This document shows, one piece after another, positions 1 to 26,309 of a stretch of 40,000 nt of DNA. The DNA is taken from assembly GCA_035533975.1 (NCBI GenBank), contig DATLSU010000020.1, positions 37,181 to 77,180 on the forward strand, given 5' to 3'. How positions within the stretch are numbered: position 1 is the stretch's first letter; the number at the start of each line of letters is the position of its first letter. Source of the DNA: Patescibacteria group bacterium. Lineage in GTDB: Bacteria; Acidobacteriota; Terriglobia; Acidiferrales; UBA7541. Below the pieces are notes generated by a model that did no database searches, was not told the origin of the DNA, and saw nothing but the letters and a program-made list of their open reading frames with translations. The position numbers and the translations under genes were made by a program.

Positions 1-1
1 C

Positions 2-385: not shown

Positions 386-433
386 ACGGAGCGGATTCTG
401 CTATGCCGGCGCGGAGATTGCCCGGCCGCGGCG

Positions 434-2335
434 CTAGCGGTGCTTGGCGCGCGCCTTCAGAACATTGTTGTCCAGAAAGTCCGGGACGTTCTTTTCCCGC
501 ACCAGGATTGGATAACGCGAGCCGCCGTGATAGTCGATCGTGCACGTCTTGTTGTAGCCGTCGTTGAGCACGATCAGTTGGAGGGGTGCGGAATTCGTGC
601 TGCTGGCCGCGATCGCGTTCCGCAAAAGCGTGGGCGAAAATGCCCTGCCGTTCACTTCGATCACTTTCATTCCGGGCGTGATGCCGGCCTGGAACGCGGG
701 GCCGTTCCAGATCGAATCGTACACCGTCCCATCTCCACTGACACCGAGCCCGATGGAATAGAGGGCGTTCACGCCGCCCCCGTATCGCCGTTGCCCTCCG
801 CTGGGAGGCTGATCGGTGAATTCCAGTTTCCACCCCGCCGCTTCGACTCCGCCCAGTGGCGCCTGGGCTGATGTCGAATCCAGGCGCTCGTTGAGGAATG
901 TCGCCCAGTCGTAGGGAGCGACCTGGTTCAGCGCGCGGACCAGATCGTCGAAGGTGTAGGTTTCGAGTTGCGGTCCCTTGTTCGGACCGCCGAAGAACAG
1001 CTTGCAGAAATCATCGAGCGATTTCCGGCCGTGGGTCTGGCGGTTGATGATCGTGTCCACCTCCAGCCAAAGCAGATCCCCTTCTTCGTAGTAATCGGTT
1101 CCGCGCAGCCAGTTCATCCACCGGCCCGGATCCTCCTGTTCCATCGGTTCGGCGACCGCCGTATCCAGCAGCGGCCTCCAGGTTCGTCCGGGGCGCCCCG
1201 GCCCGAGCGATGCGGCGACTTCGGCCAGGTAGTGGTGGTAATCGTCCTTGGTCCACAAGCCGCTGCGCGTCGCCAGAACGTTGCCCCAAAAGTCGGTCAG
1301 TCCCTCGTAGACCCACAGCATGTCGGTTTTCTCGGGCACCTCGTAGTAGGGCGTACTCAGGTCGGCCGGGCGGCGGAATTTGCCGTTCCACGAGTGGGTG
1401 AATTCGTGCGCCAGCAAAGCGCCCACGTCGATCGCCGCGCTGGGCCCGGTCAACGTTCGTTCGGGCAGCCGGCTGTCGTCCGATTCGTGGTGTTCCAGGC
1501 CGAAATGCGAAACGTAATTGCTCAGCGTCAGCAGAAAGTGGTAGTCGCGGTAGTGCCGCGTGCCGAACAATTTCCCCGTTTCCGCCACCAGGTTCGTCAG
1601 GCCTTTGCGGACCTTCTTGCTCATGTCGAGGGCTTCCGGACTATCGGCCGCGATATCGATCTCGTGGTGGATGGGCTCGCCCGGCGGCGTCAGATCGATG
1701 GCCCGGTAATACTCGCCCGCGATCACCGGCGAATCGACCAGCCGGTTGAGCGAAACCGGCTGGAAGACGATCTGGTTTCCGGAATGGCTTTTGACCGCCA
1801 GCGCCGTGCCGAACTGCCAGCCGTCGGGCAGCACGAGCGTCGCGTCGAAGGTTTGATCCTGCGCGCGAATCGCCGCCAGATACAACAGGTCTTGATTCCA
1901 ATTCACGTCCACCAGCTTGTCGGTCGACGATACCCCTTCCGTGTATTCCCCGTGCGAGCCGCTCGGCTCGAGATATTGGAACGCGATATGCAGCCGGCTC
2001 ACTCCCGGCGGCACATCCAGATGGAAGGTCCACGCGTCGAGCAGATCGCGTTTCCACGGAATGGTTTTTCCGTTCGCGGTGAGCTTCAGGCCGGCGACGC
2101 TCATGACCGGTCCGTCGGGCGCGTGCTCGCCGGGAATCCATTTCGGGTAGTAAAGCGTCAGGGGGCCGGGACGCACCGGCACGTCCATTTCGGTGCGAAT
2201 GATTCCTTCCGGGGCCTGGCGGGCGTCGACGGTCAACTCGATCGTCGGCCCTGCCAGCGCAAACGCCGGCACGGCCAGAGCGAGCGACAGAGCCAGATAC
2301 AGGTATGAGAACAAACGAAATCGGGAACGGCACAT
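434..2335 (-). CDS. M61 family metallopeptidase (glycyl aminopeptidase-like) with C-terminal PDZ-like region, secreted
   Basis: HEFTHSWNGKFRRP zinc motif typical of M61. Signal-peptide-like N-terminus MCRSRFRLFSYLYLALSLALAVPAFA. Start chosen at ATG 2335, preceded by GAAGGAGGA. The longer ORF start at 2428 lacks an RBS. Confidence 0.85.
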   Translation of the reverse strand: MCRSRFRLFSYLYLALSLALAVPAFALAGPTIELTVDARQAPEGIIRTEMDVPVRPGPLTLYYPKWIPGEHAPDGPVMSVAGLKLTANGKTIPWKRDLLDAWTFHLDVPPGVSRLHIAFQYLEPSGSHGEYTEGVSSTDKLVDVNWNQDLLYLAAIRAQDQTFDATLVLPDGWQFGTALAVKSHSGNQIVFQPVSLNRLVDSPVIAGEYYRAIDLTPPGEPIHHEIDIAADSPEALDMSKKVRKGLTNLVAETGKLFGTRHYRDYHFLLTLSNYVSHFGLEHHESDDSRLPERTLTGPSAAIDVGALLAHEFTHSWNGKFRRPADLSTPYYEVPEKTDMLWVYEGLTDFWGNVLATRSGLWTKDDYHHYLAEVAASLGPGRPGRTWRPLLDTAVAEPMEQEDPGRWMNWLRGTDYYEEGDLLWLEVDTIINRQTHGRKSLDDFCKLFFGGPNKGPQLETYTFDDLVRALNQVAPYDWATFLNERLDSTSAQAPLGGVEAAGWKLEFTDQPPSGGQRRYGGGVNALYSIGLGVSGDGTVYDSIWNGPAFQAGITPGMKVIEVNGRAFSPTLLRNAIAASSTNSAPLQLIVLNDGYNKTCTIDYHGGSRYPILVREKNVPDFLDNNVLKARAKHR

Positions 2336-2433
2336 GCGGGATCCTCCTTCCCGTGCGGCGAGACGCGTTGTAGCAATTGGAGACGATACCGCGCAGCAGG
2401 CCGCAACGATGTTAGGCTTCGTTTCCAACCCCC

Positions 2434-2447
2434 GTCAACGCGAGCAG
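2434..2447. repeat. Left target-site duplication, gtcaacgcgagcag
   Basis: Identical 14-mer in direct orientation at 15795-15808, immediately outside the inverted repeats. Length is ambiguous at 14-17 bp because ccc precedes both copies. Confidence 0.75.
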
Positions 2448-2480
2448 GGGATAGGAGATAGAGCCGCGCAAAACCGGCCC
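2448..2480 (+). repeat. Left terminal inverted repeat of casposon-like element
   Basis: gggataggagatagagccgcgcaaaaccggccc matches the reverse complement of 15762-15794 at 29 of 33 positions, the first 17 perfectly. Weaker similarity continues about 40 nt inward. Confidence 0.75.
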
Positions 2481-2558
2481 TCAACATGTCGTGGGTCGGC
2501 GGCTGGGCGGACGCAAGGGAGGAATTGCACTGGGCAAGCATGCGAGAAGTATGGTGCG

Positions 2559-2975
2559 TTATGGCAGAAAATAGCATGGAAATCGCATGCTTATTCCCAA
2601 CCGCTCTGGAAGTTGCATCCTCGTGACTTTTTCAATCACAGGTGGCAAGTCTATGTGGTAATTCTGGGACAGCTGAAACGCTGCTTCATTATAGAATTCA
2701 ACCACCTGAAAATTGCTACCGAATCTCCTCTCAAACGTGTTGTCATCATAAAATGCAAATGGATCAAGAAAATACACCTCGACCATCCCCTTAATCACCA
2801 ATCCGCGTTCAGCAGCACTCGCTAGCGGACCAAACCGTTGACGCAGCAACATCATAGTTTTCAGATTGTCTTCCGAAAGGCGCATGGTGCGATATTGCGC
2901 ACCGTTCAGGATGTCCTCACGAGTGAAACCTATGACAGAAAAAACATCTGCATTCTTAAACTCAGGTTCTGCCAT
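2559..2975 (-). CDS. Hypothetical protein, 138 aa, last gene of the leftward operon
   Basis: ATG start with GGGAG upstream. Lies 27 nt downstream of the HEPN gene on the same strand. No motif recognised. Confidence 0.55.
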   Translation of the reverse strand: MAEPEFKNADVFSVIGFTREDILNGAQYRTMRLSEDNLKTMMLLRQRFGPLASAAERGLVIKGMVEVYFLDPFAFYDDNTFERRFGSNFQVVEFYNEAAFQLSQNYHIDLPPVIEKVTRMQLPERLGISMRFPCYFLP

Positions 2976-3002
2976 TTGCTCTATACTCCCATGCGGCGAA
3001 TG

Positions 3003-3731
3003 TCAGTCAAGGTTTTCCCTAAGAAGACTATCTAAATCACTTTCATTTCGTAGGCGCTCCCCGGTTTCGGCATCTAAGGCTGCGAGAGACAATCTATTGA
3101 GTATTTCTTCCCGGTGATCTCTGCCGCGCAGGTAAAGCACAAAGAATCGAAGAATTGCCAGACGGATCGGAGAAGCCCACCGTTCGCATTCCTCATGTGT
3201 GACAAACTTGCCCTCAAGGTAAGGATCCACATCGTACTGGCCATGCACTAATTGACTTCTGCGTGAGTAGAACTTCTTTATTTCACGGAAAATGTTGGCT
3301 CTCTCTTCCGGTGTGGTTCCCACAAGCTGACTCACGCTCTGCGCAATGCGAAATGTGAATTCACTTTTGTCATTTGGCGAAAGTAGCGATTCGAGGGCAA
3401 TGGCTAAACTGATTAGTCTGTCGGCTGGCTTGTCCTGCGTGTGACTGAATTCAAAATAATCTCCGGCGCGATAACTGGACTGACGCAAGCTGCTACGGAG
3501 GTCGTTTATTCGATCAAGAAACTTCGGGTGCTGATATAGCGCCCACCAGCGGGTGACGGTATCTCGCTCATCTGCGTTAAGAGTGTAAAATCGACGACCG
3601 CCTTCATATGGGAAACGACGAGGATTCCCGATAAAGAAAACTCCCCACTTGCGGATTTGGTTGACCCATTCCGGCAGGAAGTGAGGCGCTGCATAATCAA
3701 TGTGAACTACTCCATCCTTGAAGTATTGCAA
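3003..3731 (-). CDS. HEPN domain protein (Apea/ApeA-like), probably the C-terminal part of a frameshifted ~470-aa gene
   Basis: LISLAIALESLL ... FRIAQSVSQLVG ... KKFYSRRSQLVHG contains the Rx4-6H HEPN motif in its usual helical context. The only start candidate is TTG, without an RBS. The frame opens directly at the A7 tract. Confidence 0.6.
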   Translation of the reverse strand: MQYFKDGVVHIDYAAPHFLPEWVNQIRKWGVFFIGNPRRFPYEGGRRFYTLNADERDTVTRWWALYQHPKFLDRINDLRSSLRQSSYRAGDYFEFSHTQDKPADRLISLAIALESLLSPNDKSEFTFRIAQSVSQLVGTTPEERANIFREIKKFYSRRSQLVHGQYDVDPYLEGKFVTHEECERWASPIRLAILRFFVLYLRGRDHREEILNRLSLAALDAETGERLRNESDLDSLLRENLD

Positions 3732-4420
3732 CGCGTGGAGGAAAAGCTCGGCCTTGTTTTTTTCTCAAATAGCCACTTGACGGGCTCTTCACACGGCCCT
3801 TCCTGTTCCGAGACGATGAAAAACTCACCCGTGCCAGGGGGATTGAAGAAGGATACCGCAGAGGTCTCGCCGAGTATTTTTGAGATGGTAGGGCCGCCGA
3901 GGCGCTCCATCCTCACGTCTCCGAATTTCAGACTCGGTTCTTCGGCATGAAAGTTGAACACGTGACACAGTGATATTGCCTTGAAGCGTCCCTCCCCATA
4001 AATGGTGGCATCAAATCGCTGAAAGAGTTCCTCCAATCTCTCCTGGGGTGCACCGTCGTTGATCAGCAATGCAGCAGGACTCACAAACCCGACATCGAGA
4101 CAGTGAGCGAGGGGACCGAGACCAACACAACATTCTCTTAATTGCCTATCTTGAGCCAATATATCCGAAAGCGTTGTCCGCACTCGGTCACCCTCGAATC
4201 CGGCAGTGGAGAATTGTCCGCGCCTAGTCTCCAGGAACTTGGCTTGTTCCGCATCAGCAGGCTCCATGACCCAAGGGAAAGCGAGATACAGAAATGGCGA
4301 GGCGGCATCTGGAATGATTGTTTCTGTCCGCGTTTTGATGGTTGCCACCACGCGTGCCTGCGCGATGAGAAATTCTTTCAATTGTGAGTATTTCTCGGGG
4401 GTTGTATTAGTTGTGGACAT
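3707..4420 (-). CDS. Hypothetical protein, probable N-terminal part of the HEPN (ApeA-like) gene
   Basis: ATG start 50 nt downstream of the PolB stop. The ORF overlaps the HEPN ORF by 25 nt in another frame. Its tail after the A7 tract (TRPSFSSTRCNTSRME) looks like out-of-frame read-out. Confidence 0.55.
   Translation of the reverse strand: MSTTNTTPEKYSQLKEFLIAQARVVATIKTRTETIIPDAASPFLYLAFPWVMEPADAEQAKFLETRRGQFSTAGFEGDRVRTTLSDILAQDRQLRECCVGLGPLAHCLDVGFVSPAALLINDGAPQERLEELFQRFDATIYGEGRFKAISLCHVFNFHAEEPSLKFGDVRMERLGGPTISKILGETSAVSFFNPPGTGEFFIVSEQEGPCEEPVKWLFEKKTRPSFSSTRCNTSRME
3757..3763 (-). other. A7 homopolymer (minus strand GAG AAA AAA ACA) at the junction of the two ORFs; candidate -1 frameshift site or indel
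   Basis: In the -1 frame a TGA lies immediately 5' of the tract. After the tract that frame reads NKAELFLHALQYFKDG and continues into the HEPN ORF. Confidence 0.5.
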
Positions 4421-4470
4421 AGCATCACATTTCCTAACTTAAGATGAAAAGCCCAGCGCCGTATTCTACA

Positions 4471-7400
4471 TCAAGACTGGTTTATGGGCGTGTGTCCAGT
4501 TCTTCCCACTATATCGATGAGGCGCATCCGGTGTGATCGACGCGGCCTGCTCCGCGCGGCCCTGATCTCTTTCAGCGCACTCGGTGACATACCACTCTTT
4601 TTCACGAGGACCGACAGCGGTATTTTCTTCAACGCGGGCAGGATTGTCATTTGCCACTCATCCCGCTTGGGGTCCGGGTATTCGGTGTAAACCCCGCGCT
4701 CATCGTGAATCAGCCCGGCTTCTACATCTTCCAGACGGTTCGATTCTTTGCCGATACACTCGATGTGCTCAATTCGAATATGCCTTCGATACAACAGGCC
4801 AACGGTTTGTTTGACACAGGGGTTTCCGTTTGCATCGGCGCATTTTGATTCCGGGTGAAACTCGTATTCCTGCAAAACGTCGCCGTAGGTTTTGACGCGA
4901 GCGCAGTGCCTGGCGCCGTGGTGCCCTGCCGTTGTGATCCCGAATTCATTTCCCGAGTACAGGTCAGTCCAATCCATGCGCATCCATTTCATTGGATTTG
5001 ATTCGTATGGTGCGATGAGATGAAATCGTGCAGGGTCCACACCGACGGGATGGCCCAGGGGACTGATGTGGCACGTCAAAAGAAAATTGAACGGTTTGAT
5101 TTGGTCGCTGTATTTCTTGCTCTTGTTGAGCCGGGCAAAGGACCGCATAACGGTGGGGCTACTGATCGTCACGCGCCCCACGGCAGGTGATCCCTCGAAT
5201 CCCATTTTCCCCGTGCTCATGCCGAGCGAACGGCGCACGATGTTAAGCCACGCCTGCCTGATCCAGTCCCGGTCTTCACTCTCGGGATCGGTCGGATTCA
5301 ACAGATGCCCGAGGCCATGCTCTGACCATCGAAGCAACACAGGTTCACCCCCGCCATCCTGCAGAAAGAGTGCGTATCGTTTGGCTGAAATTGCCAAGCA
5401 GTACAGCTGCCGCTGACGACCAGTTTTCGGATCGAAATTGTCATCTTCTATTTTGAGAACGGACCCCGGCACTGCGCTGCGGTCGTAAGGGTTGAGCGCA
5501 GCGAAGCTCTCAGCAATCTCTCTCACTTGTGCCCATGACAAGGCCTTGATGGCTTCGCGGCCATCCTGCATCTGATACGGTCCACCAGGACATGGCACAA
5601 GTCCTCCATGCTCAGTGACCACAATCGCCATTGAATCTGTATCCTCCATCGCGTTCGTGCCACCCAATTCAGTGACTGAGTGTTCCAATAAGGCCAACAT
5701 GAGACGTGCCGCGCCTGTAATCAGCGAAGCGAGTGGAGGGAAGCAATATTCGCCCGGCACCTCTGGGTGAGCGACACGGCAGGCGAAGGGGTCTGCGTCA
5801 ATCCCGTGGCACGTCACGTTTGACTCTCGGTCAGCTTCTTGGCGGTTCATCTCCGCATAGATTCCATAGCTGGTCGAATTCGCGAGGACTTTTAGCGCTT
5901 TATCGAGCCGTCTTTTCTCAATGTCGGTGAGGTCGGAACGTGATGACAAGTGTTTCCGTTCCTCGATTACGACTCTGAAAAAATCCTCACGTCTGGGATC
6001 GACTTCGATAGCACCACGCAGCTTCACAGGCGCGAGGCCTGGAAGCGTACCTTGAGGCTCCATACGGAAGGCATCGACAATTTTGGGTATGCGCCCGGTC
6101 AAAAGCACAGACGCGACAACATCCGGGAGTGAGAACCACAACGCCACGCTGTCCTCGCTGCCCTTGGCGTAGAGATGATTGATGCCAATCTGCCAATCGT
6201 TGCCTCCTGTGCCGTATCTCGCCCGCGTCGGCAAAATATCCCCATTCGGAATGACTTTCACGAACGCAGGCAAGCGTAGCCACGTCTCGGGCTTGAAAAG
6301 ATCGGCAGGCTTCAAATGTCTTAGGAATTCCTCAATTTCACTTTGGCAGTGCTCGACAACCTTAACCTCGTTCGCTATGACGTATTGCCAAAGCCCCATG
6401 AGGCTGTTGACCGTGGGATACATCGAAAGAAAATCCACGTATACAACCGGAACCGGCACTTTGCGGATGTGGGCGCTGGCACGTCCACCGAAGAAAGCAG
6501 ACTGTGCGTATCCCAAATATTTCCTGGGAAAATCTGGCTGTCTTTCAAGGATGGGGATGATCCCCATGGCCCGCAGGTATGCCTTCCCGATGGAAGCAGG
6601 AGAATACGCCCTTGTGGCCTGAAGACTGATCGGATGTTTTTGATACTCTTCGATCAGCTTGCACGCCAATTCAGATGTTGCCAGAACGTCGCGCCGGTTG
6701 TAATCGATGTATTCCTCAGTGACTTCTCCGTGATGGTTTGTTTTCTGCTTTCCATGTGCGACACCGAACGCCTCGCACGCAGATTCCAGAGAATAGCCCC
6801 GGTCGGTTAGTGCAAATGCGAGTGTGCGCAAATCCAGCAAGTGACCGCGAAATTTATATCCCGGTTCAGGCTGACCGCTCGGCGATCCTTCGGGGATCAT
6901 ATCGGTCCGGTCCGCATTGTTCCGTGCTGTGAACCCCTTCAACGCACGCTTGCTATCGATCTGCTTGATGCCGATTCTGGGCCGGAAGTGATTTGTTCTT
7001 TGTCGCCCGTTCTTGTCCGTGTATTGCCACATGCCAAGTGAAAAGCCGCCAGCGAATCGGCCCCGCGCCGGTGCACAATCGTGGGCGATTCGCGACAGGT
7101 CAAACGGCTGATTGAAGGCAACGACAAGACATCGGCCTTTGTATGCAGCGAAATAAAGCACGTCCAGGAACTCGTTCAGGGATAACAAGCGCAGTTCCGG
7201 TCTGCCTTCCTGACACGTCTCGGCTCGGTGCGTTGCAACGTAGCGTTCCAGGATTTCGCGTTCCTTCGCTGGCAGTTCATCGGCGTATAAAAGTCCCTCT
7301 TCCAAGCATTCCCCGTTTACGAAAAACCGATAGCTTCCAAACGTCAAGCGTTGGGTGGGGTCGGTGCGTGTTTCTGTGTCGAAGACAAGCATTGCGGAAG

Positions 7401-7503
7401 GCAATTCGGGTGCCTGCTGTTTTCTGTTACTCCCTTTCGCGTCCGGTGGCTCCGGGTAAACGCGAACGGCAATAGGTAGCGATATTGGCTGATGAATCGA
7501 CAT
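4471..7503 (-). CDS. Family B DNA polymerase with 3'-5' exonuclease domain, 1010 aa
   Basis: ExoI MLVFDTET (D42, E44). ExoII NQPFDLSRI. ExoIII YIDYNRRDVLAT. Motif A DFLSMYPTVN. Motif B KVLANSTSYGIYAE. Motif C AMEDTDSMAIV. KxY-like AISAKRYALF. Confidence 0.9.
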   Translation of the reverse strand: MSIHQPISLPIAVRVYPEPPDAKGSNRKQQAPELPSAMLVFDTETRTDPTQRLTFGSYRFFVNGECLEEGLLYADELPAKEREILERYVATHRAETCQEGRPELRLLSLNEFLDVLYFAAYKGRCLVVAFNQPFDLSRIAHDCAPARGRFAGGFSLGMWQYTDKNGRQRTNHFRPRIGIKQIDSKRALKGFTARNNADRTDMIPEGSPSGQPEPGYKFRGHLLDLRTLAFALTDRGYSLESACEAFGVAHGKQKTNHHGEVTEEYIDYNRRDVLATSELACKLIEEYQKHPISLQATRAYSPASIGKAYLRAMGIIPILERQPDFPRKYLGYAQSAFFGGRASAHIRKVPVPVVYVDFLSMYPTVNSLMGLWQYVIANEVKVVEHCQSEIEEFLRHLKPADLFKPETWLRLPAFVKVIPNGDILPTRARYGTGGNDWQIGINHLYAKGSEDSVALWFSLPDVVASVLLTGRIPKIVDAFRMEPQGTLPGLAPVKLRGAIEVDPRREDFFRVVIEERKHLSSRSDLTDIEKRRLDKALKVLANSTSYGIYAEMNRQEADRESNVTCHGIDADPFACRVAHPEVPGEYCFPPLASLITGAARLMLALLEHSVTELGGTNAMEDTDSMAIVVTEHGGLVPCPGGPYQMQDGREAIKALSWAQVREIAESFAALNPYDRSAVPGSVLKIEDDNFDPKTGRQRQLYCLAISAKRYALFLQDGGGEPVLLRWSEHGLGHLLNPTDPESEDRDWIRQAWLNIVRRSLGMSTGKMGFEGSPAVGRVTISSPTVMRSFARLNKSKKYSDQIKPFNFLLTCHISPLGHPVGVDPARFHLIAPYESNPMKWMRMDWTDLYSGNEFGITTAGHHGARHCARVKTYGDVLQEYEFHPESKCADANGNPCVKQTVGLLYRRHIRIEHIECIGKESNRLEDVEAGLIHDERGVYTEYPDPKRDEWQMTILPALKKIPLSVLVKKSGMSPSALKEIRAARSRPRRSHRMRLIDIVGRTGHTPINQS

Positions 7504-7507
7504 TCGC

Positions 7508-8008
7508 TTAACGCCTGGGTGTGAATTTTCTTAGGTCAGTCTTCTCCCACCATCCCGGCCCGTGCTGTTCAACCATCGATGCGTTATACGTTTCAAGCAT
7601 GTTTGCAATCCGAAGGAGCAATTCCTTCATGAGATAAACGAGAGTGTCTACAAAGCCCCGGATGGACGCGGCTGCCGCAAGCACCGGATTTCCGTCCGGG
7701 TTTTCCAGAGTGTCTTTTGGCCAGTCGTGTTGGGCTGGGCTCAGGACCGCACGGTGATCATTGACCGGCACGGGGACGGTCGCATTGCTATTCGACTTGC
7801 CCGCGACGTGGTGCGCATCGCATATGCTCTTCCCCTGCCCCTTCCGCTGGCAGGCTGCGCAGATGGTGGGGTTGCTTCCCTTTATGAGTGCTTCCGGTCG
7901 GCTCTCACCGCACGCGCATTTCTTGCCCGCTCCGATCCGCCGCGCCGCACTAGCTTTGCGCTGGTATTTTCTGATTGGATTACGCGGTGGTGGTTCCTTC
8001 GGCATCAT
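7508..8008 (-). CDS. HNH-type nuclease, 166 aa
   Basis: CACG...CAAC cysteine pairs followed by DAHHVAGKSNSNATVPVPVNDHR (an HH...N...H pattern). Start ATGATG overlaps the upstream stop (ATGA). Stop lies 4 nt before the PolB ATG. Confidence 0.6.
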   Translation of the reverse strand: MMPKEPPPRNPIRKYQRKASAARRIGAGKKCACGESRPEALIKGSNPTICAACQRKGQGKSICDAHHVAGKSNSNATVPVPVNDHRAVLSPAQHDWPKDTLENPDGNPVLAAAASIRGFVDTLVYLMKELLLRIANMLETYNASMVEQHGPGWWEKTDLRKFTPRR

Positions 8009-8550
8009 GCAACCCCCGCATAGAGAGATTCGAACGACAAAGCGCCAGCCGACGCCAGTCGGTCCAGAACTTCCAGATCGGTCAGCAGTGGGATTCGCTT
8101 TCGGCTGGCGTCCATGATGCGCTTCTTCCTGAATTTCTCCAGAGCTGACGCATCCCCCGTTTGCAGATATTTCTGAACGGCTGCCCAATACTGACCAAGA
8201 CGGCTCGCCTGCCGAGAATCGCGAAGGGCAATTTCTCTCACCCCCTCAGGGGAAGGAATGGTGAGGACCCGAAGCAGCGTATCAGTGGGTCTTGCTGCGT
8301 ACCGCCCATTGCGGCCCTTGCGCAAGGCAGGCTTGGCCCAGCGGATCACCGTGCGCGGACCAAGACCAAATTCCTGGGACGCCTGTGTGAGCGACACCCC
8401 GTCGGCTCGCATCTTTGAGACCGCGTGGGTGATGCGGTTCCAGCGGTCTTGGGATCGGGCAGGCATGGCGGAAAATTGCTTTAGAGTTCGCGGTGCTACA
8501 AGCCGAATTCTCGTTGACCGACGTTTGCGATTTTTTCTTTTTGCTTTCAT
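8005..8550 (-). CDS. HTH DNA-binding protein with basic N-terminus, first gene of the leftward operon
   Basis: MKAKRKNRKRR basic tail. HTH-like segment VSLTQASQEFGLGPRTVIRW. Start set at the internal ATG 8550. Confidence 0.6.
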   Translation of the reverse strand: MKAKRKNRKRRSTRIRLVAPRTLKQFSAMPARSQDRWNRITHAVSKMRADGVSLTQASQEFGLGPRTVIRWAKPALRKGRNGRYAARPTDTLLRVLTIPSPEGVREIALRDSRQASRLGQYWAAVQKYLQTGDASALEKFRKKRIMDASRKRIPLLTDLEVLDRLASAGALSFESLYAGVA

Positions 8551-8607
8551 GCAGACAGGTTTTCGCGAACGCGAGGTAAACTCAATCAAGCGTCATTGTA
8601 TTTGGGG

Positions 8608-9399
8608 ATGAAATTGTCGCAACCTAATGAAAACAAAAGCCGAGGCAGACCGAGAAAAACTACCGATGAAGAACTTTTACGCTACGAGGGACTTTGGGTT
8701 GACACTTTCACTGGCCTGCGCGACGGCACCTCTGAGGCTGAAACCGTCGTTCCCGCCAGATCGGGCATGTTTGTCAAATCGAGCGGGGGAGAACGCGAAC
8801 GGGTGTATTCACACGTTCCGGGCGAAGCCCCGCGCGTTGTGCATGAGCCAAGGTTTTCCACCACTCCCGACGAGAAGCGGCGTTGGACACTTCGCAAACA
8901 AGAAGAGGAAAAGCAGTTTGAAAAGACCATCCTGACGCCGCATGTTGACATTGCTCCAGCCATTCCCGATGAACGCAGCTTATGGGAAGCACTGAAGCGA
9001 GCACAGACAGCTGCTCAGGTCCGGAGAATTTGCAGTCGATCCAAAATATGGCTGAGGCCTCGAAGAATTGAGTTTCCGGACGGCGGTTTCGTGGAGTGGT
9101 GGGCCTTTCGGAGAGTCTTGTACCAAAGAGCGCAGGAATTTTGCCGAGCGAAACTCGACCCCCGGTATCCTGGGCGGGACCAGAGGGCATCGGGAGACTA
9201 CCGGAGAATCGAATATTTCGCTCGTGTGCTGTCAGGCCTAACCGTTGGGCTTGCGCCATCAACCGCCGTGGAGCGACTTAGAAGAATGCGGCATCCGGGA
9301 GAATGCGGGTGTTGGCGCTGCTTCCTGGGGATCGGCTCACAGTACGGTAAGAGCTTGGTACAACTTTTGTGCGAGCGCGGCCCCGCATGGCGAATATAA
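8608..9399 (+). CDS. Hypothetical protein, 263 aa, first gene of the rightward arm
   Basis: Long ORF divergent from the HTH gene. Basic N-terminus SRGRPRKTTDEE and C-terminal CGCWRC. No family recognised. Confidence 0.55.
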   Translation: MKLSQPNENKSRGRPRKTTDEELLRYEGLWVDTFTGLRDGTSEAETVVPARSGMFVKSSGGERERVYSHVPGEAPRVVHEPRFSTTPDEKRRWTLRKQEEEKQFEKTILTPHVDIAPAIPDERSLWEALKRAQTAAQVRRICSRSKIWLRPRRIEFPDGGFVEWWAFRRVLYQRAQEFCRAKLDPRYPGRDQRASGDYRRIEYFARVLSGLTVGLAPSTAVERLRRMRHPGECGCWRCFLGIGSQYGKSLVQLLCERGPAWRI

Positions 9400-9446
9400 G
9401 CGTTGTTCACTCAAGCAAAGAAAGGTTGACTGATACCTCTAAATAG

Positions 9447-9460
9447 ACTACATATGTAGT
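9447..9460. promoter_or_regulatory. Perfect 14-bp palindrome actacatatgtagt, candidate operator
   Basis: Self-complementary 14-mer abutting the GTG start of the Xis-like HTH gene. TTGACT lies at 9425-9430 upstream. Confidence 0.4.
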
Positions 9461-9682
9461 GTGAGTATACGCTTAACGACAGTCGAAACCGCTACGAAAA
9501 CGGGTCTCAATCGTGTCACCCTTCAGGAGTGGATTCGAACGGGCCGAGTGAAGGCTCCAAAGCTGGTGCTCCGCAACGGTAGGGCGGTGCGCCTCTGGTC
9601 TCAATCTGACATAGAGAGTTTGCAGCGGGTGAAGGCAGAAATCTACCGCAAAGGTAGAGGACGGAAGAAAAGCAAAGCATGA
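9461..9682 (+). CDS. Excisionase/MerR-superfamily small HTH protein, 73 aa
   Basis: LTTVETATKTGLNRVTLQEWIRTGRVKAPKL...RLWSQSDIESL matches the HTH_17/Xis-type pattern. GTG start. Confidence 0.65.
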   Translation: MSIRLTTVETATKTGLNRVTLQEWIRTGRVKAPKLVLRNGRAVRLWSQSDIESLQRVKAEIYRKGRGRKKSKA

Positions 9683-9751
9683 CAGAGCAGGACGCGCCGG
9701 TGCAGCAGCACCGGACGCGCCCCTAACCACCAAAGGAGGCGTCACACTCCA

Positions 9752-11392
9752 ATGGCAGCTACGCAGACGTTACCGCAGGTCCCGCAGGTCGGCAATTTCG
9801 AGGTTCCATCCTCAACCCCACCGGAACTCGGCATTTCAAAGAGCCAAACCGTAGAAGTGCTCACGCCAAGACGCGGTGTGGTTACTCTTTTTGGTTACGG
9901 GATCAGGGTCCGCGTGGATCGGGGCCACCTGATTCTTGAGGACGGGATCGGTGCTGCCCGTCGCGCGGGACGCTTCTCCCGCGTGAGGCATGGGCTAAAG
10001 CGTGTGGTTGCCATCGGGTCGGATGGCATGGTTTCGCTTGCGGCGCTCCGCTGGTTGGCTGACCAGGACGCGGCCTTTGCGATGCTCGACCGTAACGGCT
10101 CAGTGCTTGCCGTGACCGGCCCCGTTCGCCCCTCTGATGCCCGCTTGAGACGCGCTCAGGCTCTTGCAGTGCAATCCGGAACCGGCCTGCGAATTGCGCG
10201 ACAATTGGTGAATCAGAAAGTCGCTGCCCAGGAGCGGCTGGCCAGCGATGGCCTGCAAGCCCCGGCTGTTGCGCAAACGATTCGCGAAGCTCGGTCTGCA
10301 TTGGCTTCGGCTGCGACGATTGATTCCCTTCGCGCACAGGAAGCGCAGGCAGCCCACGCTTATTGGTCCGCATGGCGCAACATCCCGCTCACCTTTCCTA
10401 AGCAGGATGCCCGCCGCGTGCCGGATCACTGGCTGACTTTCGGGACGCGCATTTCTCCGCTTTCGGGTTCCCCCCGCCTTGCCGCCAATCCGGCTAATGC
10501 CATCCTGAATTACCTGTATGCCATCCTCGAAACGGAAGCCCGGCTTGCCGTTGCAGCACTTGGCCTCGATCCCGGTCTTGGCGTTATGCACCTCGATAGC
10601 CGGACACGCGACAGCTTGGCTTGCGATTTGATGGAACCGATCCGGCCACAGGTGGACGCCTATTTGCTCGAATGGATCACCCGCGAGGCATTCCGCCGGG
10701 AGTGGTTTTTTGAAGAGCGCAACGGCAACTGCCGCCTCATGGCTTCACTCGCTACCCAGTTGGCCGAAACCGGGCCGACTTGGGCAATGGCCGTTGCGCC
10801 CCTGGCGGAATGGGTGTCCCACACGCTGTGGAGAAGCATCTCCAAGTCAGTTCGCCGAAATTCGCCAGCAACAAGGCTCACCCAGTCTCACAAGCGCGGG
10901 GCCAAAGGAGCGACTCTCATGCCACCAGCCAAGCCCCTGCCCAGGCCTCCAGCTGTTTGCCGGGATTGCGGTGCCCCAATCAAACCAGGCCGGAATTACT
11001 GCGCTTTCTGCGGAGTTGTTTTTTCGAGGGCGGGTCTCATAGAGGCTGCAAAGCTCGGGCGAGCGGCCGGGCACAGCCCAGAGGCGCGTGCCCGCCAAGC
11101 TAAGAAGCAACGCCGCAATGCCGCTGCACTGAAGAGGTGGAATCCCACGGAGCAACCCGAGTGGCTGACGGAAAATTTCTATCGCGAAGAGATTCAGCCG
11201 CATCTTGCGGGTGTCACCGTACCGGCCATTGCTTCCGCCCTTGGCCTTTCCCAGCCTTACGCGGCGAGGATTCGGGCCGGTAAACAGTGCCCTCATCCAA
11301 GACATTGGCAAGCGTTGGCGCGGCTAGCAGGAGCTTCGCGGGATCGGAAGACACATCTTCAATGGTCGGCAAGCCGAATCGGAAGCCTATAG
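9752..11392 (+). CDS. cas1: Cas1 homolog (putative casposase) with C-terminal zinc ribbon and HTH, 546 aa
   Basis: NAILNYLYAILETEARLAVAALGLDPGLGVMHLDSRTRDSLACDLMEPIRPQVD carries the Cas1 catalytic E, H and D/E positions. CRDCGAPIKPGRNYCAFCG (10958-11014) is a CxxC...CxxC ribbon. VPAIASALGLSQPYAARIRAG is HTH-like. Confidence 0.9.
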   Translation: MAATQTLPQVPQVGNFEVPSSTPPELGISKSQTVEVLTPRRGVVTLFGYGIRVRVDRGHLILEDGIGAARRAGRFSRVRHGLKRVVAIGSDGMVSLAALRWLADQDAAFAMLDRNGSVLAVTGPVRPSDARLRRAQALAVQSGTGLRIARQLVNQKVAAQERLASDGLQAPAVAQTIREARSALASAATIDSLRAQEAQAAHAYWSAWRNIPLTFPKQDARRVPDHWLTFGTRISPLSGSPRLAANPANAILNYLYAILETEARLAVAALGLDPGLGVMHLDSRTRDSLACDLMEPIRPQVDAYLLEWITREAFRREWFFEERNGNCRLMASLATQLAETGPTWAMAVAPLAEWVSHTLWRSISKSVRRNSPATRLTQSHKRGAKGATLMPPAKPLPRPPAVCRDCGAPIKPGRNYCAFCGVVFSRAGLIEAAKLGRAAGHSPEARARQAKKQRRNAAALKRWNPTEQPEWLTENFYREEIQPHLAGVTVPAIASALGLSQPYAARIRAGKQCPHPRHWQALARLAGASRDRKTHLQWSASRIGSL

Positions 11393-11728
11393 CATCGAAG
11401 ACCCCCTATCTCGATCACGGCTGGACGCCTTCGCATTCCGCTCATTCTTCAGTAATTAAACAAGTGTTGTCGGAAAACAAAAGTTTTCTGTGGAAACTAT
11501 TTTCTAATGTTATTTCACTGGACGAAGGTCTTGTCATCCTGAAATACTTTTTCAGGACATAGAAAGTAGGTGGCAGGCAGCCAATTCAGGTGTCTCCCCT
11601 CCGCAGCGACTCAAGGAAACACGTCTTCCGATGGAAGGCGGGTTTCCAAATGAATTCCGTTTGTGATGGTGAGGGTCATGCCGCTGGCAGACTGCCCATT
11701 GCTGCAACTACCGGCTTGAGGAGAACAA

Positions 11729-11941
11729 ATGCCGAGAAGAAACTTGGAATCTCAAATCGTGCGGCTCCGACAGGAAATCGAAAGGCTCTCTGCTGAGCAC
11801 GCGGAGAAGATGAAGCAACAATCGAGCACAGCGAATGCCAAGCTGCGCGCAGCAGAGGCGAAGCGAGCCGAAATCCTGGCTCGCCGCATACGTCAACTGA
11901 ATGAGATGCTGGACGCCCTTCAGCGTGCGCAGTCAAATTGA
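11729..11941 (+). CDS. Small coiled-coil protein, 70 aa
   Basis: Heptad-like charged sequence LESQIVRLRQEIERLSAEHAEKMKQQ...LNEMLDALQRAQ. ATG start. Confidence 0.45.
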   Translation: MPRRNLESQIVRLRQEIERLSAEHAEKMKQQSSTANAKLRAAEAKRAEILARRIRQLNEMLDALQRAQSN

Positions 11942-12081
11942 GTGCTTGCCCACACGGGAAGCACGATCAAAAATGACGTCGAACACCCACCGGGACAGTG
12001 AATGAACTATCGAACCGAACGATGGTGCAATATATGAGTTCCGGTCGACTGAGCACCGATCCGTTCCCTGCCCCCTCTGGC

Positions 12082-12369
12082 CTACCCCAGGTCGAGAAGC
12101 GCAGCTTCGGCCCTAAGGCTTTCCAGAGTGTCTCGCAGGAGTTTCCTCGACTCTACACCGAACGATTTGGCCACAGCCTCAACGTCCTCCATGATCCAAG
12201 CCGCCGAGATGTCTACCGCCTCAGAAGGAGCAGCTTCACCATCGCCGCAGGTCTTCACTTGCCGTTTCGAAACGGTTAAGCGGAGCGAGCTCCCCCGTTC
12301 ATTACTACGCATGAGGGCCACCTTTGTACAAGAATTGTTCCGAGATGGAGACAAGAACATGTTTGGCAC
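12082..12369 (-). CDS. Hypothetical small protein, divergent from the XRE gene (strand assignment uncertain)
   Basis: A 95-aa ORF. A competing 150-aa ORF on the plus strand (12128-12580) covers the same DNA and cannot be excluded by eye. Confidence 0.3.
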   Translation of the reverse strand: MPNMFLSPSRNNSCTKVALMRSNERGSSLRLTVSKRQVKTCGDGEAAPSEAVDISAAWIMEDVEAVAKSFGVESRKLLRDTLESLRAEAALLDLG

Positions 12370-12591
12370 GCTATCACTTTTCGCCTGGAATGCTGAGAGC
12401 TATACCCGTGGGAAAGTGGCGACCTTGCCAAGTGCCTTTGGAGTAAACGTTCCAGCAGTGACGTTCGACTCAATAGCACGAAAGTGCCATGGATTGCGCC
12501 ATGTCCCGAACCTCCGCGTACTGGGCTGGCAATACCTTCAAGTTATAATGCTCTTGCTTTGCTCTGTAGCTCCGCGATAATCGTTTTCATT

Positions 12592-12945
12592 ATGATCATT
12601 GGCGAACGCATTAGAACCTTGAGGGAACTGAAGGGGCTCTCGCAGGGCGATATCGAGAAACGCAGCGGCCTGTTGAGATGCTACATTTCCCGCGTCGAAA
12701 ACGGTCACACCTCGCCGTCACTGGAAACCCTGGAGAAGTTCTCACGGGGGCTCGAAGTACCCCTACATGAACTGTTCTATGAGGGCGAGGAAGCTCCGGT
12801 TTTGTCTTCGCTAACCGCTGAAGACATCACCTTGCAGCCAAATAGCGGCCCGTCACTGCACCGACTCGCGGAACTGTTCAGAGGGTTGGGTCAGCAGGAC
12901 CGCCAGATCGTGCTTCAGACAGCCGAGCGGTTAAGCAAGATTTAG
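12592..12945 (+). CDS. XRE-family HTH transcriptional regulator, 117 aa
   Basis: IGERIRTLRELKGLSQGDIEKRSGLLRCYISRVENGHTSPSLETLEKFSRGLEV is a canonical Cro/C1 HTH. Start set at ATG 12592. Confidence 0.85.
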   Translation: MIIGERIRTLRELKGLSQGDIEKRSGLLRCYISRVENGHTSPSLETLEKFSRGLEVPLHELFYEGEEAPVLSSLTAEDITLQPNSGPSLHRLAELFRGLGQQDRQIVLQTAERLSKI

Positions 12946-13022
12946 CTTGTGCTGGCGCAGGTATGCTAGTGGGCTTGCAAGCTGACAGGGTGTTCCCAGC
13001 CCCCAAATCGAGCAAGGAAAGA

Positions 13023-13535
13023 CTACTCGCAAGCTCTCCCATAAGCCGGACGATCCCCTGCGTCTTCGGCCTGTGCCTGTGTCATGTATTCGCCGTGCTT
13101 CGTGGTCCCATACCACCTCGTGCCGGGGCAATGATAGACGCCCGAGGACGTATTGACCCAAACCTTTACGTTGGGATTGCCTTGATGCTCAGTCTTACCC
13201 GTTGTGCTCCCATGCTTCTTGGACGTGTTGGGCGAGGCAGACTCGCCTCCGCCCGACTGACAGGTTCTTCCGTATGCGGGGCGGTAACCCTTTTGTTGGG
13301 CCTCACCCTGCGCCATGTATTCGCCGCTCTTTGTTGCCCCATACCACCTCGTGCCAGGGCAGTGGTAAACCCCAGAATGTGTGTTGACCCAGACCTTGAT
13401 CTTGGAATTGTCCTGACTCTGTGAATGAGAGCGAGCTGTGTCCGACAACCCGTGCGGAATAGTGTTGGCTGGAACAGATGCCGGGACGAACAGCAAGGCC
13501 ACGATGAGGCCAATGGTTGCCAGCAGCCGACGCAT
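13023..13535 (-). CDS. Secreted protein with two tandem ~55-aa Cys-containing repeats
   Basis: Signal peptide MRRLLATIGLIVALLFVPASVPA. AAGGAGG lies 5 nt upstream of ATG 13535. Repeat KVWVNTxSGVYHCPGTRWYGxTKxGEYMxQxxAxxxGxRPAYGRxC occurs twice. Confidence 0.8.
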   Translation of the reverse strand: MRRLLATIGLIVALLFVPASVPANTIPHGLSDTARSHSQSQDNSKIKVWVNTHSGVYHCPGTRWYGATKSGEYMAQGEAQQKGYRPAYGRTCQSGGGESASPNTSKKHGSTTGKTEHQGNPNVKVWVNTSSGVYHCPGTRWYGTTKHGEYMTQAQAEDAGDRPAYGRACE

Positions 13536-13869
13536 AGCCACCTCCTTGTGATCTAAGAAAAGACCCCTGGGGCTAGAGAACCTTTTAACACCAATCGCGA
13601 GGTGTGGAACACATAAAGGTGATTTTGTTTTCTCAGGAAAGACCGGCGCAGGATCGATCCGAGATGCCCCTTCCTATCGGGTTAGATTGAATCGTTCGAG
13701 TGCGGGAATAGCGGTTAATCCTTGCGACATAATCCATTGGAAACGAACGTGTCGCGTCGTAGCATATCTGCCAACGGACGCTGTTGATGTACAGGGGGGC
13801 GCATCCTGGAAACGTGCGGCCTTCTTTCTCCTGCTGCGGCCTGAATGGCCAGGAGGGTAACAACCCCAA

Positions 13870-14178
13870 ATGACGAAAGAGCAATTGGGCGAAAGCCTCA
13901 GGTCGAGGCTGGCTCAGAAATGCACGCGCGGAGAAATGGACGGGAATCTGCCCAGTGGCAGGGAGTCTTTCTCGGAAAACCTGAAGAACACGAACGATGA
14001 CAACCTGATAGTTGGCTTCCTGAAGTGCGCCGTATGCGGTCAGATGAGCATGTCAGTGGAAGAAGCCGTGCGGTTCGCAGGGCATTGCGAAACCGCTGAT
14101 GATTGGGTCAGGTTCCTGGTTGGTTGGCAACAGCAGTTCGGTTGGTGTTGTCACGACATCGGCAAGCCGAATTGCTAG
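13870..14178 (+). CDS. Hypothetical Cys-rich protein, 102 aa
   Basis: ATG-initiated ORF in an AT-richer region. CAVCG and HCE/WCCH cysteine/histidine clusters. No family recognised. Confidence 0.4.
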   Translation: MTKEQLGESLRSRLAQKCTRGEMDGNLPSGRESFSENLKNTNDDNLIVGFLKCAVCGQMSMSVEEAVRFAGHCETADDWVRFLVGWQQQFGWCCHDIGKPNC

Positions 14179-14417
14179 GGGTACCCAGAGACATTGGGAG
14201 CCTATTGCACGGCGTTTTTCACTTAGGCCGGAGTTAACTCCTAGTCAACAGGTACCTCACATCAAGGCAAAGTCTCCGGCTCCGGAAACGTTGTATTCCC
14301 CCGAAACGAGAAATAGGTGAAAACAATACCTACATTGGTGATAGGGGTGTATAAGATATGCGTTGCCAGTGTTAATGGATGTCGGCCTTGAAAGTTCGGC
14401 CGAAAGGAGTACTGAGA

Positions 14418-15239
14418 ATGAAACACACATGGAGAATTGCACTCGCTTTGCTGTTGGGAGCGAGCACGGTGATGGCGCAGAATCCGGTGACGACGCCTGC
14501 GCCGGAACCCAAGCCAGCAGCGACTCCTGGGATCGTTCTGCAAGACGGCACGCCCGTGAAGCTCCGGTTGACTGAAACTATCTCGTCGGCAAGCGCTCAC
14601 GTAAACGACACCGTTCCCTTTGAAGTACTGGAGCAGATCAAGGTAGGCGGTCTCCTCGTCATCCCCAAAGGCAGCATGGCCTGGGGCACAGTGACCGAGG
14701 CGCAGCATAAACGGAGACTTGGCCGGGCAGGAAAACTCAACATCAGCGTTGTCGCCGTAAGGTTGCAGGACGGCGAAAAAGCCGCGCTCCGCGCCGTCAA
14801 GGATGTCAAAGGCGGCGGCCACCAAGGAGCGATAACGGGGGCAATCGTTGCGACAAGCATTGTATTTTTCCCGGTGGCCCCTCTGTTTCTTCTAATTCAT
14901 GGCAAAGATATAACCATCCCGCAAGGTACCGAAATTACGGCGTACATAAACGGGGACATGCCAATTGATCCGTCTAAATTCGGTGCGACGAATGCACCAG
15001 CGAATGCCGTAGCCAGCCCTGAGACCGTCCTGATTCAATCTGTGCCTACGGGAGCGGACATAACGATTGACGGTAACTATGCGGGGAGTACACCCTCGAC
15101 CCTGAAGCTCGGTCCTGGCCAGCACACAATTATTGTCAGCAAGTCCGGGTTCAAGCCTTGGCAGCGTACACTCAGCACTGAACCCGGCGCAAATGTCACT
15201 GTTGGCGCGACGTTGCAGGAGGACCAGAAAAAACAGTAA
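14418..15239 (+). CDS. Secreted PEGA-domain protein
   Basis: AAGGAG RBS before ATG 14418. Signal peptide MKHTWRIALALLLGASTVMAQ. C-terminal IQSVPTGADITIDGNYAGSTPSTLKLGPGQHTIIVSKSGFKPW is PEGA-like. Confidence 0.8.
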   Translation: MKHTWRIALALLLGASTVMAQNPVTTPAPEPKPAATPGIVLQDGTPVKLRLTETISSASAHVNDTVPFEVLEQIKVGGLLVIPKGSMAWGTVTEAQHKRRLGRAGKLNISVVAVRLQDGEKAALRAVKDVKGGGHQGAITGAIVATSIVFFPVAPLFLLIHGKDITIPQGTEITAYINGDMPIDPSKFGATNAPANAVASPETVLIQSVPTGADITIDGNYAGSTPSTLKLGPGQHTIIVSKSGFKPWQRTLSTEPGANVTVGATLQEDQKKQ

Positions 15240-15761
15240 AGAAAGGCTGTTGCATAACGCCCAACGAATCAGCCGCACGACAATATCGCGCCCGGCGTCG
15301 GTTCGACGGTGGAGTCTCGCGGAGGGAAAGAAAATTCCGCACTTGAAAATCCCGTGGAAGAACCGCCGGGACTGAGGGGAGGGCAAACGCGGTACGTTCC
15401 CTACAAGGTCGAGGCTACCTGTCGCCCGGAGTCCCCGGAGTTGGGTGCAGGGTAGAGGCGGGCTGGCTGGGCCGCAGCCTCTTTCTTCTATCATAGGAGT
15501 AATCTCGGAAGCCTTAGCTCCCGTCAATAGCTCGCGAGCTTTGTCAGACAGACCGCCACCCTCGCCCAATAGGTCTGCTAGCTTGAAATCTGCCATCGCA
15601 CACTGCGTGGTCGCTTTCAGCAGGTCCAGCAGAACGGCATTTTCCCCCGCGAGCACCCTTGAGCCTGCCACCCATGCCTCCCCCCCCCAGTGCGCGCACG
15701 GCCCAGGCCACACCAATGAGTGCCCTTGTGCCCACCCTCGCCTCAACCACAAGCCGTAGGG

Positions 15762-15794
15762 GGGCCGGTTTTGGCGCGCTCTATCTCCTATCCC
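15762..15794 (-). repeat. Right terminal inverted repeat of casposon-like element
   Basis: The reverse complement reads gggataggagatagagcgcgccaaaaccggccc. It matches 2448-2480 at 29/33 positions. Confidence 0.75.
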
Positions 15795-15808
15795 GTCAAC
15801 GCGAGCAG
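15795..15808. repeat. Right target-site duplication, gtcaacgcgagcag
   Basis: Perfect direct copy of 2434-2447. Confidence 0.75.
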
Positions 15809-16006
15809 TTGCCGAACAAGAACGGAAGCCGGATCGGAGAAACTCGGATTTCGAGGCCTTTGTCCCCGGGCGCTTGCGGCCGGCGGGCTTATAGCGCGCT
15901 TGCGCGGGACGCCGGGCGGAAATCCTGTCATAATCGATTCCACTTGCAGGACCGGCTGGGACCGTGTGAACGCAGCGGAAAATTCGAAACAATGAGGGGG
16001 CAGGGC

Positions 16007-16744: not shown

Positions 16745-16780
16745 CTCGCTCCGGGCGCACGGGGCCTGGCGCGGATTCCT

Positions 16781-17116: not shown

Positions 17117-17171
17117 CGCGCACCTTTGCCATGCCTGGTAGCTGCCGGGTTTGTGCGCAGCCAGGCCGGTC

Positions 17172-17504: not shown

Positions 17505-17595
17505 TCACCGGAAAAGGTCAACGGAGGGTGCCGCTTCCTTCCACGGCACGAAACTTTCCAATTTATATCATTGCCGAAGGAGTCGGAGAGAATCG

Positions 17596-20782: not shown

Positions 20783-20845
20783 AAAATCCGGTTCCAGCCC
20801 TCCCTGTGGCGCGGGCAGGAATGCACGCGCCACGGGGATCCATAG

Positions 20846-24079: not shown

Positions 24080-24086
24080 GACAGTC

Positions 24087-26305
<2,219 letters not shown>

Positions 26306-26309
<4 letters not shown>

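Follow-up and report, generated by a model that had tools for sequence, protein, structure and literature searches.

We report that positions 2448-15794 of a 40,000-nt stretch of contig DATLSU010000020.1 (the window, by which we mean the whole of that stretch) very probably hold a casposon of family 3, one of a clade in Acidobacteriota whose members integrate at predicted sigma-70-type promoters. The element is 13,347 bp long and sits intergenically between divergent M61 peptidase and YceI genes, both of which were confirmed by family search. A complete casposon in a bacterial chromosome, bounded by inverted repeats and a 14-bp direct duplication, had been proposed earlier from the DNA letters (hereafter the original prediction), and this description stands: the Cas1 protein groups with casposases, a family B DNA polymerase (PolB), inverted ends and the duplication are present, no CRISPR parts lie nearby, and both boundaries had been placed exactly.

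A repeat search returned an exact 17-nt direct repeat, CCCGTCAACGCGAGCAG, at 2431-2447 and 15792-15808; the CCC in its right copy forms the inverted-repeat tip, and what was duplicated at the target site is therefore the 14-mer alone, which is found at both edges. The inverted ends, which the repeat tool reports as 42 nt at 81%, are 33 nt long and agree at 29 of 33 positions, with the 4 mismatches all central and the outer 17 nt of both ends identical.

2434-2447 (+): left, promoter-proximal copy of the 14-bp target-site duplication, GTCAACGCGAGCAG (repeat search, end reading, shuffles)
15795-15808 (+): right, promoter-distal copy of the same 14-bp duplication, GTCAACGCGAGCAG (repeat search, end reading, shuffles)
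2448-2480 (+): left terminal inverted repeat, GGGATAGGAGATAGAGCCGCGCAAAACCGGCCC (repeat search; fits the family end consensus)
15762-15794 (-): right terminal inverted repeat, 29/33 identical to the left (repeat search, end comparison)

The inverted-repeat tip and the 14-mer have no further occurrence in the 40 kb, where shuffles expect 0.06 and 0.00 matches, so within the window they are not the common dispersed repeat that the original prediction had allowed for. The GC content is 0.62-0.66 in the flanks versus mostly 0.48-0.59 within the element.

The protein on which the identification turns is the Cas1 homolog, together with the DNA polymerase described further below.

9752-11392 (+): casposase, 546 amino acids (aa), with a Cas1 domain (47-334), a zinc ribbon (403-421) and a C-terminal helix-turn-helix (HTH, 486-535) (profiles, alignment, tree)

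It matches the Cas1 profiles PF01867 (E 4e-42) and TIGR00287 (E 3e-35), and its catalytic-type residues E197, H280, D292 and E295 are invariant in 17 Cas1 sequences that include two published casposases. In a BLASTP search of a reference set, the closest protein was the AceAut-C1 casposase (45% identity over 297 aa, E 7e-73); identity was 31-36% to other family 3 casposases and 24-27% to those of family 2, while matches to CRISPR Cas1 proteins were weaker or partial. Using as reference the Cas1 alignment in the supplement of Krupovic et al. (2014, PMC4046053), we built a neighbour-joining tree with 300 bootstraps, support being taken from explicit bipartition counts. The window Cas1 and its metagenomic relatives group together in 100% of the replicates, are sister to AceAut-C1 in 82%, and form a clade with all five family 3 references in 88%. 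The phylogeny that the original prediction had called for thus places the protein with casposases and outside the Cas1 proteins of CRISPR adaptation. Judged by its sequence, the window Cas1 belongs with the casposases of family 3, already known from bacteria, where it falls in a separate subclade and calls for no new family; the suggestion of a new bacterial casposon lineage gives way to a position inside family 3 next to AceAut-C1 (88% and 82% bootstraps), with which it shares the fusion of Cas1, zinc-binding domain and HTH.

Automatic annotation calls the same protein 'CRISPR-associated endonuclease Cas1', and its best match in the PDB is Cas1 of A. fulgidus, slightly above the casposase of M. 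mazei. Both would suit a leftover of CRISPR adaptation, or a Cas1-solo gene in a defence island, unrelated to transposition. This explanation is effectively refuted by the position of the protein within the family 3 casposases, by its linkage to PolB (72 of 79 loci, see below) within inverted ends and duplications, and by its surroundings: family scans of the element's open reading frames (ORFs) and gene calls around it gave no Cas2 or other cas gene, and the 40 kb contains no CRISPR array. The NCBIfam models of CRISPR subtypes all scored far below their cut-offs on the window Cas1, and a search of a plasmid collection with it found only CRISPR cas1 genes at less than 35% identity.

Next to the casposase gene the element carries PolB and a group of accessory genes shared with its relatives.

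4471-7503 (-): divergent family B DNA polymerase, 1010 aa (Pfam, PHROG, motifs; homologs in 72/79 loci)
7508-8008 (-): HNH-like zinc-finger protein, 166 aa (motifs, structure prediction; homologs detected in 20/79 loci)
8005-8589 (-): conserved DNA-binding protein with an N-terminal winged-helix HTH and a C-terminal alpha/beta domain, start uncertain (153 aa according to NCBI) (HTH profiles, AlphaFold2 model; homologs in 47/79 loci)
8596-9399 (+): ORF of 267 aa (called as 263 aa), no family match, common to 6 relatives (ORF calls, locus search)

The polymerase named in the original prediction is real though divergent. All six motifs are present (Exo I FDTET, Exo II FNQPFD, Exo III YNRRD, motif A DFLSMYP, motif B KVLANSTSYG and motif C EDTDS), and 14 PolB homologs show little or no variation at their key residues. 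Its match to PF03175 (DNA_pol_B_2; E 1.2e-5) reaches 24.9 bits, 0.9 bit below the cut-off of 25.8, and a PHROG DNA polymerase matches at E 1e-5. As this weak Pfam match is to a family of protein-primed, viral and organellar polymerases, and as one relative (L002) has a serine recombinase and ParB/RepB inside its boundaries, we considered whether the island is another kind of PolB-carrying mobile element, such as a pipolin or an integrated linear plasmid or virus, with a different integrase. We regard this as very improbable, since the 14-bp duplication with inverted ends is the signature of a casposase, scans with Pfam, NCBIfam and PHROG found neither a tyrosine, serine or DDE recombinase nor genes for capsids or packaging among the element's ORFs, and there is no tRNA attachment site at the element. 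The original prediction had likewise reported no Cas2, other cas gene, CRISPR array, recombinase or transposase, and the ORF family scans and the 40-kb array search agree with it. An Rfam search of positions 1-18000 found no RNA family.

The 166-aa protein has four invariant cysteines and the pattern D-x-HH...N...NDH on a confidently predicted beta-beta-alpha unit, in keeping with the HNH nuclease claimed for it earlier, and an HNH endonuclease gene has been reported for every casposon of families 2 and 3. A genuine gene of this kind (PF01844, PF14279) also occurs at 16781-17116 (-), just downstream of YceI; it is on the host side, outside the casposon, and unrelated to the element's HNH-like protein. 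The winged-helix protein, whose gene adjoins those of PolB and the HNH-like protein, matches HTH_23, HTH_28 and HTH_29 weakly, and its AlphaFold2 model (predicted local distance difference test score, pLDDT, 85) resembles DtxR/IclR-like winged-helix domains at E > 0.2; a profile search against the PDB returned designed proteins only. A role for it as a sigma-factor-like targeting protein is unsupported: a marginal Sigma70_r4 match appears in 1 of 20 homologs, and the matches of the model are to generic winged-helix repressors. Where at least four small HTH proteins had been counted in the element, two were verified in addition to the HTH of Cas1, and the rest were not.

The window element belongs to a populous group. 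More than 120 full-length Cas1 homologs at 61-79% identity were found in metagenomes, and a scan of one genome per species yielded 500 casposase relatives. The best 79 of these 500 loci (numbered with L below) all come from Acidobacteriota (Terriglobia, Acidoferrales, Bryobacterales, Vicinamibacterales), several genomes holding two copies. When the window proteins were searched against the 79 loci, homologs were found of Cas1 in 79, of PolB in 72, of the winged-helix protein in 47 and of the HNH-like protein in 20, and of the window's cargo in almost none. PolB nearly always lies on the opposite strand, upstream of Cas1, giving a core of PolB(-), HTH and Cas1(+) with variable cargo; the two divergent arms that the original prediction could match to no known layout are thus standard in more than 70 acidobacterial relatives. 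Among loci L090-L168 the polymerases fall into two sublineages, one 60-70% identical to the window PolB and accompanied by the HNH-like gene, the other about 35% identical and without it, whereas the casposases are uniformly 54-66% identical across both, which suggests from sequence comparison that the replication module has been exchanged between casposons. The clade is apparently a large, undescribed casposon group of soil Acidobacteria; a literature search of incomplete coverage found no paper on acidobacterial casposons, and a 2023 casposon review mentions neither them nor promoter targeting.

The source metagenome-assembled genome is labelled 'Patescibacteria group bacterium' by NCBI. As its contig is 63% GC, its best 79 casposon relatives are all from Acidobacteriota and the M61 relatives come from peat and soil metagenomes, it looks as if this label is wrong or the contig mis-binned.

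Requiring an exact 14-nt direct repeat immediately outside inverted repeats, we recovered 32 bounded elements, including that of the window, of 10.4-17.5 kb and many with 40/40 identical ends. Two close relatives bring the exact 14-bp duplications to 34, at different loci, and relaxed criteria added three more elements with one-mismatch 14-bp, 13-bp and 15-bp duplications, for a total of about 37. The ends follow a common plan: they begin with GGG, have an A-tract at 22-25 and continue in a C-run beyond position 31. The sequence GTCAA starts 28 of the 32 duplications (TTGAC on the other strand) and is present in all five further elements, the exceptions having TTGTC or TTGCT in place of TTGAC; relative to Cas1, GTCAA occurs in both orientations (18 versus 14). 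Over all of the roughly 37 elements, TTGAC closes the duplication in 34 and one of the two variants in three.

Alignment of the target sites revealed a second conserved block 17-24 nt outside the duplication, such that the other strand reads TTGAC, 17 or 18 nt, and TAnnnT, the form of a sigma-70-type promoter. At the window, an independent consensus scan located the corresponding site upstream of the M61 peptidase gene; that the insertion site is a promoter had gone unnoticed in the original prediction.

2409-2438 (-): predicted sigma-70-type promoter of the M61 peptidase gene, with -35 TTGACG (2438-2433), an 18-nt spacer and -10 TAACAT (2414-2409) (independent consensus scan)

This is the sole promoter-like match in 2250-2700, and the first five bases of its -35 box form the edge of the duplication. 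Across the clade, TAnnnT at a spacer of 17 or 18 accompanies 28 of 28 scored TTGAC sites, as against 13 of 319 other TTGAC sites (4%) in the same host flanks (binomial P about 1e-39), and the variant -35 sites (TTGTC, TTGCT) retain the spacing and the -10. A host gene begins 8-294 nt downstream of each promoter and reads away from the element; the genes so placed include valS, trigger factor, a NuoB-like gene, the rnpA region, rhomboid proteases and a conserved secreted protein. Five genomes have a casposon at the valS promoter, and as these casposons differ in their ends and in orientation, they are independent insertions; L122 is a sixth insertion at the valS promoter, unmatched by the sequence pattern used for the valS comparison. 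Targeting of tRNA genes, as in family 2, was considered and rejected, no tRNA gene being present at any clade insertion site.

The geometry of insertion is constant. The duplicated 14 bp comprise 9 bp upstream of the -35 box and its first five bases (TTGAC), so that, as far as predicted promoters tell, the clade's insertion point lies in nearly all cases 9 bp before the -35 box of a host promoter. Insertion leaves the host gene with its -35, spacer and -10 and with the element directly upstream; at the far copy, TTGAC runs into the casposon end and there is no promoter. From this pattern we infer active targeting. In the mechanism that we propose, whose first steps follow the casposon literature, the casposase (Cas1 with zinc ribbon and HTH) would join the 3' ends of the GGG-starting element to target strands 14 bp apart, gap repair of the staggered cuts would then produce the 14-bp duplication, and the element's own PolB is presumed to copy the element. 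Integration would be directed to sigma-70-type promoters and would leave the host promoter intact, the candidates for promoter recognition being the C-terminal HTH of Cas1, the winged-helix protein, or contact with promoter-bound RNA polymerase.

The same insertions could also arise without any promoter targeting, if the casposons read a short (G)GTCAA motif and the least harmful insertions, those upstream of an intact promoter, were the ones to survive. GTCAA is indeed the sole strongly conserved stretch within the duplication, the host promoter left intact at such sites would make these insertions the least costly, and no sigma-factor-like casposon protein was found, the winged-helix protein being weakly of DtxR/IclR type with Sigma70_r4 marginal. 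We consider this rather unlikely, because a motif alone would not account for a -10 at the correct spacing in every scored site, set against 4% of other TTGAC sites, nor for the degenerate -35 sites, at which spacing and -10 are nonetheless preserved. Neither dispensable genes nor other intergenic DNA were seen to carry an insertion, and the many elements with identical ends are recent, which leaves little time for purifying loss.

If the promoter context is what is recognised, the two sides of an occupied site are no longer equivalent. Only the promoter-side copy of the duplication retains the full context, so the next insertion would again use that copy, and because later casposons would insert there, tandem elements and remnants would end up distal to the promoter. 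Of 30 far-side flanks, at least 11 do start with another casposon-type end; in L166 a second casposon with its own PolB is present there and in L129 a Cas1 fragment, and older casposons or remnants thus often lie on the far side of the site. We lean slightly toward a fuller version of the promoter-targeting account, in which the clade would actively select sigma-70-type promoters by reading -35, spacer and -10 with DNA-binding proteins of its own (the winged-helix protein or the HTH at the Cas1 C-terminus) or through promoter-bound RNA polymerase, and in which re-use of the promoter-side copy would build polarised arrays, a living analogue of the leader-repeat stage proposed in the origin of CRISPR. 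To our knowledge, no other bacterial transposon has promoter-specific, position-exact targeting. The literature search mentioned above, with its incomplete coverage, found no paper on promoter targeting by casposons.

Several points weigh against this account of the element and its clade. The promoters are predicted from sequence, and the data do not separate active targeting from loss of insertions elsewhere. The tree that places the casposase is a neighbour-joining one of about 290 columns with a limited reference set. PolB resembles known and solved polymerases weakly by profile methods, and for the HNH-like protein neither profile nor fold searches gave a significant match (best Pfam RecA_dep_nuc, E 0.011; no fold match in the PDB or BFVD), which leaves the nuclease part of the earlier claim unproven. 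No empty counterpart of the window element turned up: look-ups of the identical M61 and YceI proteins showed every contig with the flanking genes to be occupied, three short Logan contigs among them, and the best 80 M61 relatives in metagenomes share about 60% identity and lack synteny, none having YceI adjoining. The reconstructed empty junction, AACCCCCGTCAACGCGAGCAGTTG, is absent from 185,579 species genomes, so that the empty-site search proposed in the original prediction came back negative in this collection. The ends of the window element also have mismatches at 4 of 33 positions, where most relatives are better matched (at least 37/40 identical), and this copy may be old or inactive.

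The 90% clusters gave no useful variants, and the conserved target promoters (valS and others) were seen in the occupied form only among the clade loci examined. That the element is a former casposon, by now a fixed and non-mobile relic island, is a possibility we take seriously while doubting it. It would explain why the same occupied site recurs in all 6-9 contigs from several samples, why the element's ends are 29/33 identical, and why no second copy lies within the 40-kb window. On the other side, no truncation affects Cas1, PolB or the conserved accessory ORFs, the catalytic residues are in place, and the outer 17 nt of the ends are identical. The suggestion that the element, with intact ends, could still be mobile meets evidence on both sides: its core genes are intact, yet no empty site was found and its ends are less alike than those of most relatives. 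For the clade as a whole, signs of mobility are seen in about 37 bounded elements at many loci, some of them tandem, and in genomes with two copies.

The remaining genes of the window element are cargo or small ORFs.

2559-2975 (-): cargo ORF, 138 aa, no family match (ORF call, profile scans)
3003-3731 (-): cargo ORF, 242 aa, with an R-x4-H motif (RRSQLVH); matches phrog_28161, of unknown function (E 1.6e-5)
3707-4420 (-): cargo ORF, 237 aa, no family match (profile scans)
11729-11941 (+): small ORF, 70 aa (gene call)
12484-12945 (+): cargo, XRE-family HTH regulator (PF01381, E 2e-13; PADLOC control-protein and capH-like models match)
13023-13541 (-): cargo, secreted protein with two 'sunset' domains (NF051437, E 5e-9)
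13870-14178 (+): cargo ORF, 102 aa, no match (profile scans)
14379-15239 (+): cargo, PEGA-domain protein (PF08308, E 9e-17)

Family matches bear out the XRE regulator, secreted repeat protein and PEGA protein of the original prediction, as they do its M61 peptidase and YceI flanks. Its HEPN module comes down to the R-x4-H motif of the 242-aa ORF, which has no Pfam, NCBIfam or PADLOC match, and defence labels for the window cargo in general found no support in these three collections. In the gene for the secreted protein, a 161-nt direct repeat (71% identity; 13025-13185 and 13256-13416) corresponds to the two 'sunset' domains, which according to NCBIfam are elsewhere fused to ribosomal proteins. 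A terminator-like hairpin with a T-run at 2591-2573 (-), at the 3' end of the 138-aa ORF and about 130 bp short of the host promoter, could shield the M61 promoter from casposon read-through.

The cargo of relatives varies, and defence genes are frequent in it: a type I restriction-modification system and a GmrSD-like gene in L170 (11734-20610), a type ISP enzyme in L171 (14234-17804), and in L002 (436-4969 and 12633-14525) AAA_21/DUF3696 and NmeDI-like genes together with the large serine recombinase and ParB/RepB noted above. In L148 a tRNA-Gly(CCC) gene (12863-12934) lies inside the casposon, as cargo and not as target. L102 has two nested pairs of inverted ends (4055-4353 and 18634-18931), each with its own direct repeat (GTCAAACCCGGGGA, and an 18-nt repeat ending in TTGACGG), as if one casposon had entered the end of another, or a remnant end had been kept inside. 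The duplications of the window, L166 and L171 closely resemble one another (GTCAACGCGAGCAG, GTCAACGCGGGCGC and GTCAACGCGCGAGC), as do their -10 regions (TAACAT, TAACAT and TAAGAT), and the host genes downstream differ, being an M61 peptidase in the window and Ser/Thr kinases in L166 and L171; the likeness could reflect an extended sequence preference or chance. Elsewhere in the window, the cumulative GC skew climbs steadily from about 20500 to 32000 (~11 kb) and reverses near 32 kb, probably because many consecutive genes there share a strand.

Only about a dozen casposons are on record from bacteria, and the targets of family 3 are stated only as 'inserted within intergenic regions'. The element with the closest casposase, AceAut-C1 of Candidatus 'Acetothermum autotrophicum' (family 3; Krupovic et al., 2014, PMC4046053), likewise has a zinc-binding domain and HTH fused at the Cas1 C-terminus, a PolB and an intergenic insertion, with a duplication of 15 bp against 14 bp here. 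It differs in size (20 kb against 13.3 kb), in its inverted ends (602 bp against 33 nt) and in host phylum, and a promoter-type target has not been reported for it. NitAL212-C1 of Nitrosomonas sp. AL212, also of family 3, resembles the window element in its 14-bp duplication, intergenic position, length (14.4 kb) and casposase (34% identical), and its inverted end, GGGGTAT... with an internal A-rich stretch, matches the GGG(G/A)TA-type end of the window element; however, its zinc-binding domain is N-terminal on Cas1 and its duplication, AGCCGGTACTGCCC, lacks GTCAA/TTGAC. The family 2 casposons of Aciduliprofundum boonei and Methanosarcina mazei, whose casposases have been studied experimentally and shown to be active in integration, share with the window clade sets of Cas1, PolB, HTH and HNH or HNH-like proteins, a C-terminal Cas1 HTH, sequence-specific integration and tandem arrays with a shared duplication. 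In contrast to the window element they are archaeal, they target the 3' ends of tRNA genes or particular intergenic sites, and their casposases are 24-27% identical to that of the window. Tandem arrays are known for family 2; promoter-linked arrays are not.

The comparison with CRISPR adaptation is of a different order. There too a homologous integrase (Cas1-Cas2, acting at the leader-proximal repeat) produces a duplication of fixed length with each integration, and new units are added beside a promoter-containing leader so that polarised arrays result, a mode of growth that the casposon clade would share if the promoter-side copy is re-used. Unlike CRISPR, the clade has no Cas2 and no short spacers, its unit is a transposon of 10-18 kb, and the promoter reads away from the array toward the host gene.

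The 500 casposase relatives provide a large natural set for the study of family 3, and the target rule (9 bp upstream of the -35 box plus TTGAC) is precise and directly testable with recombinant casposase. An integrase that lands large DNA just upstream of unbroken promoters could interest tool builders. The restriction-modification systems and other defence cargo in relatives indicate that the clade may spread defence genes among soil bacteria. If targeting is active, a Cas1 integrase would be picking a promoter-adjacent site and adding units there, the arrangement required by the casposon-origin hypothesis to account for the leader and first repeat of CRISPR.

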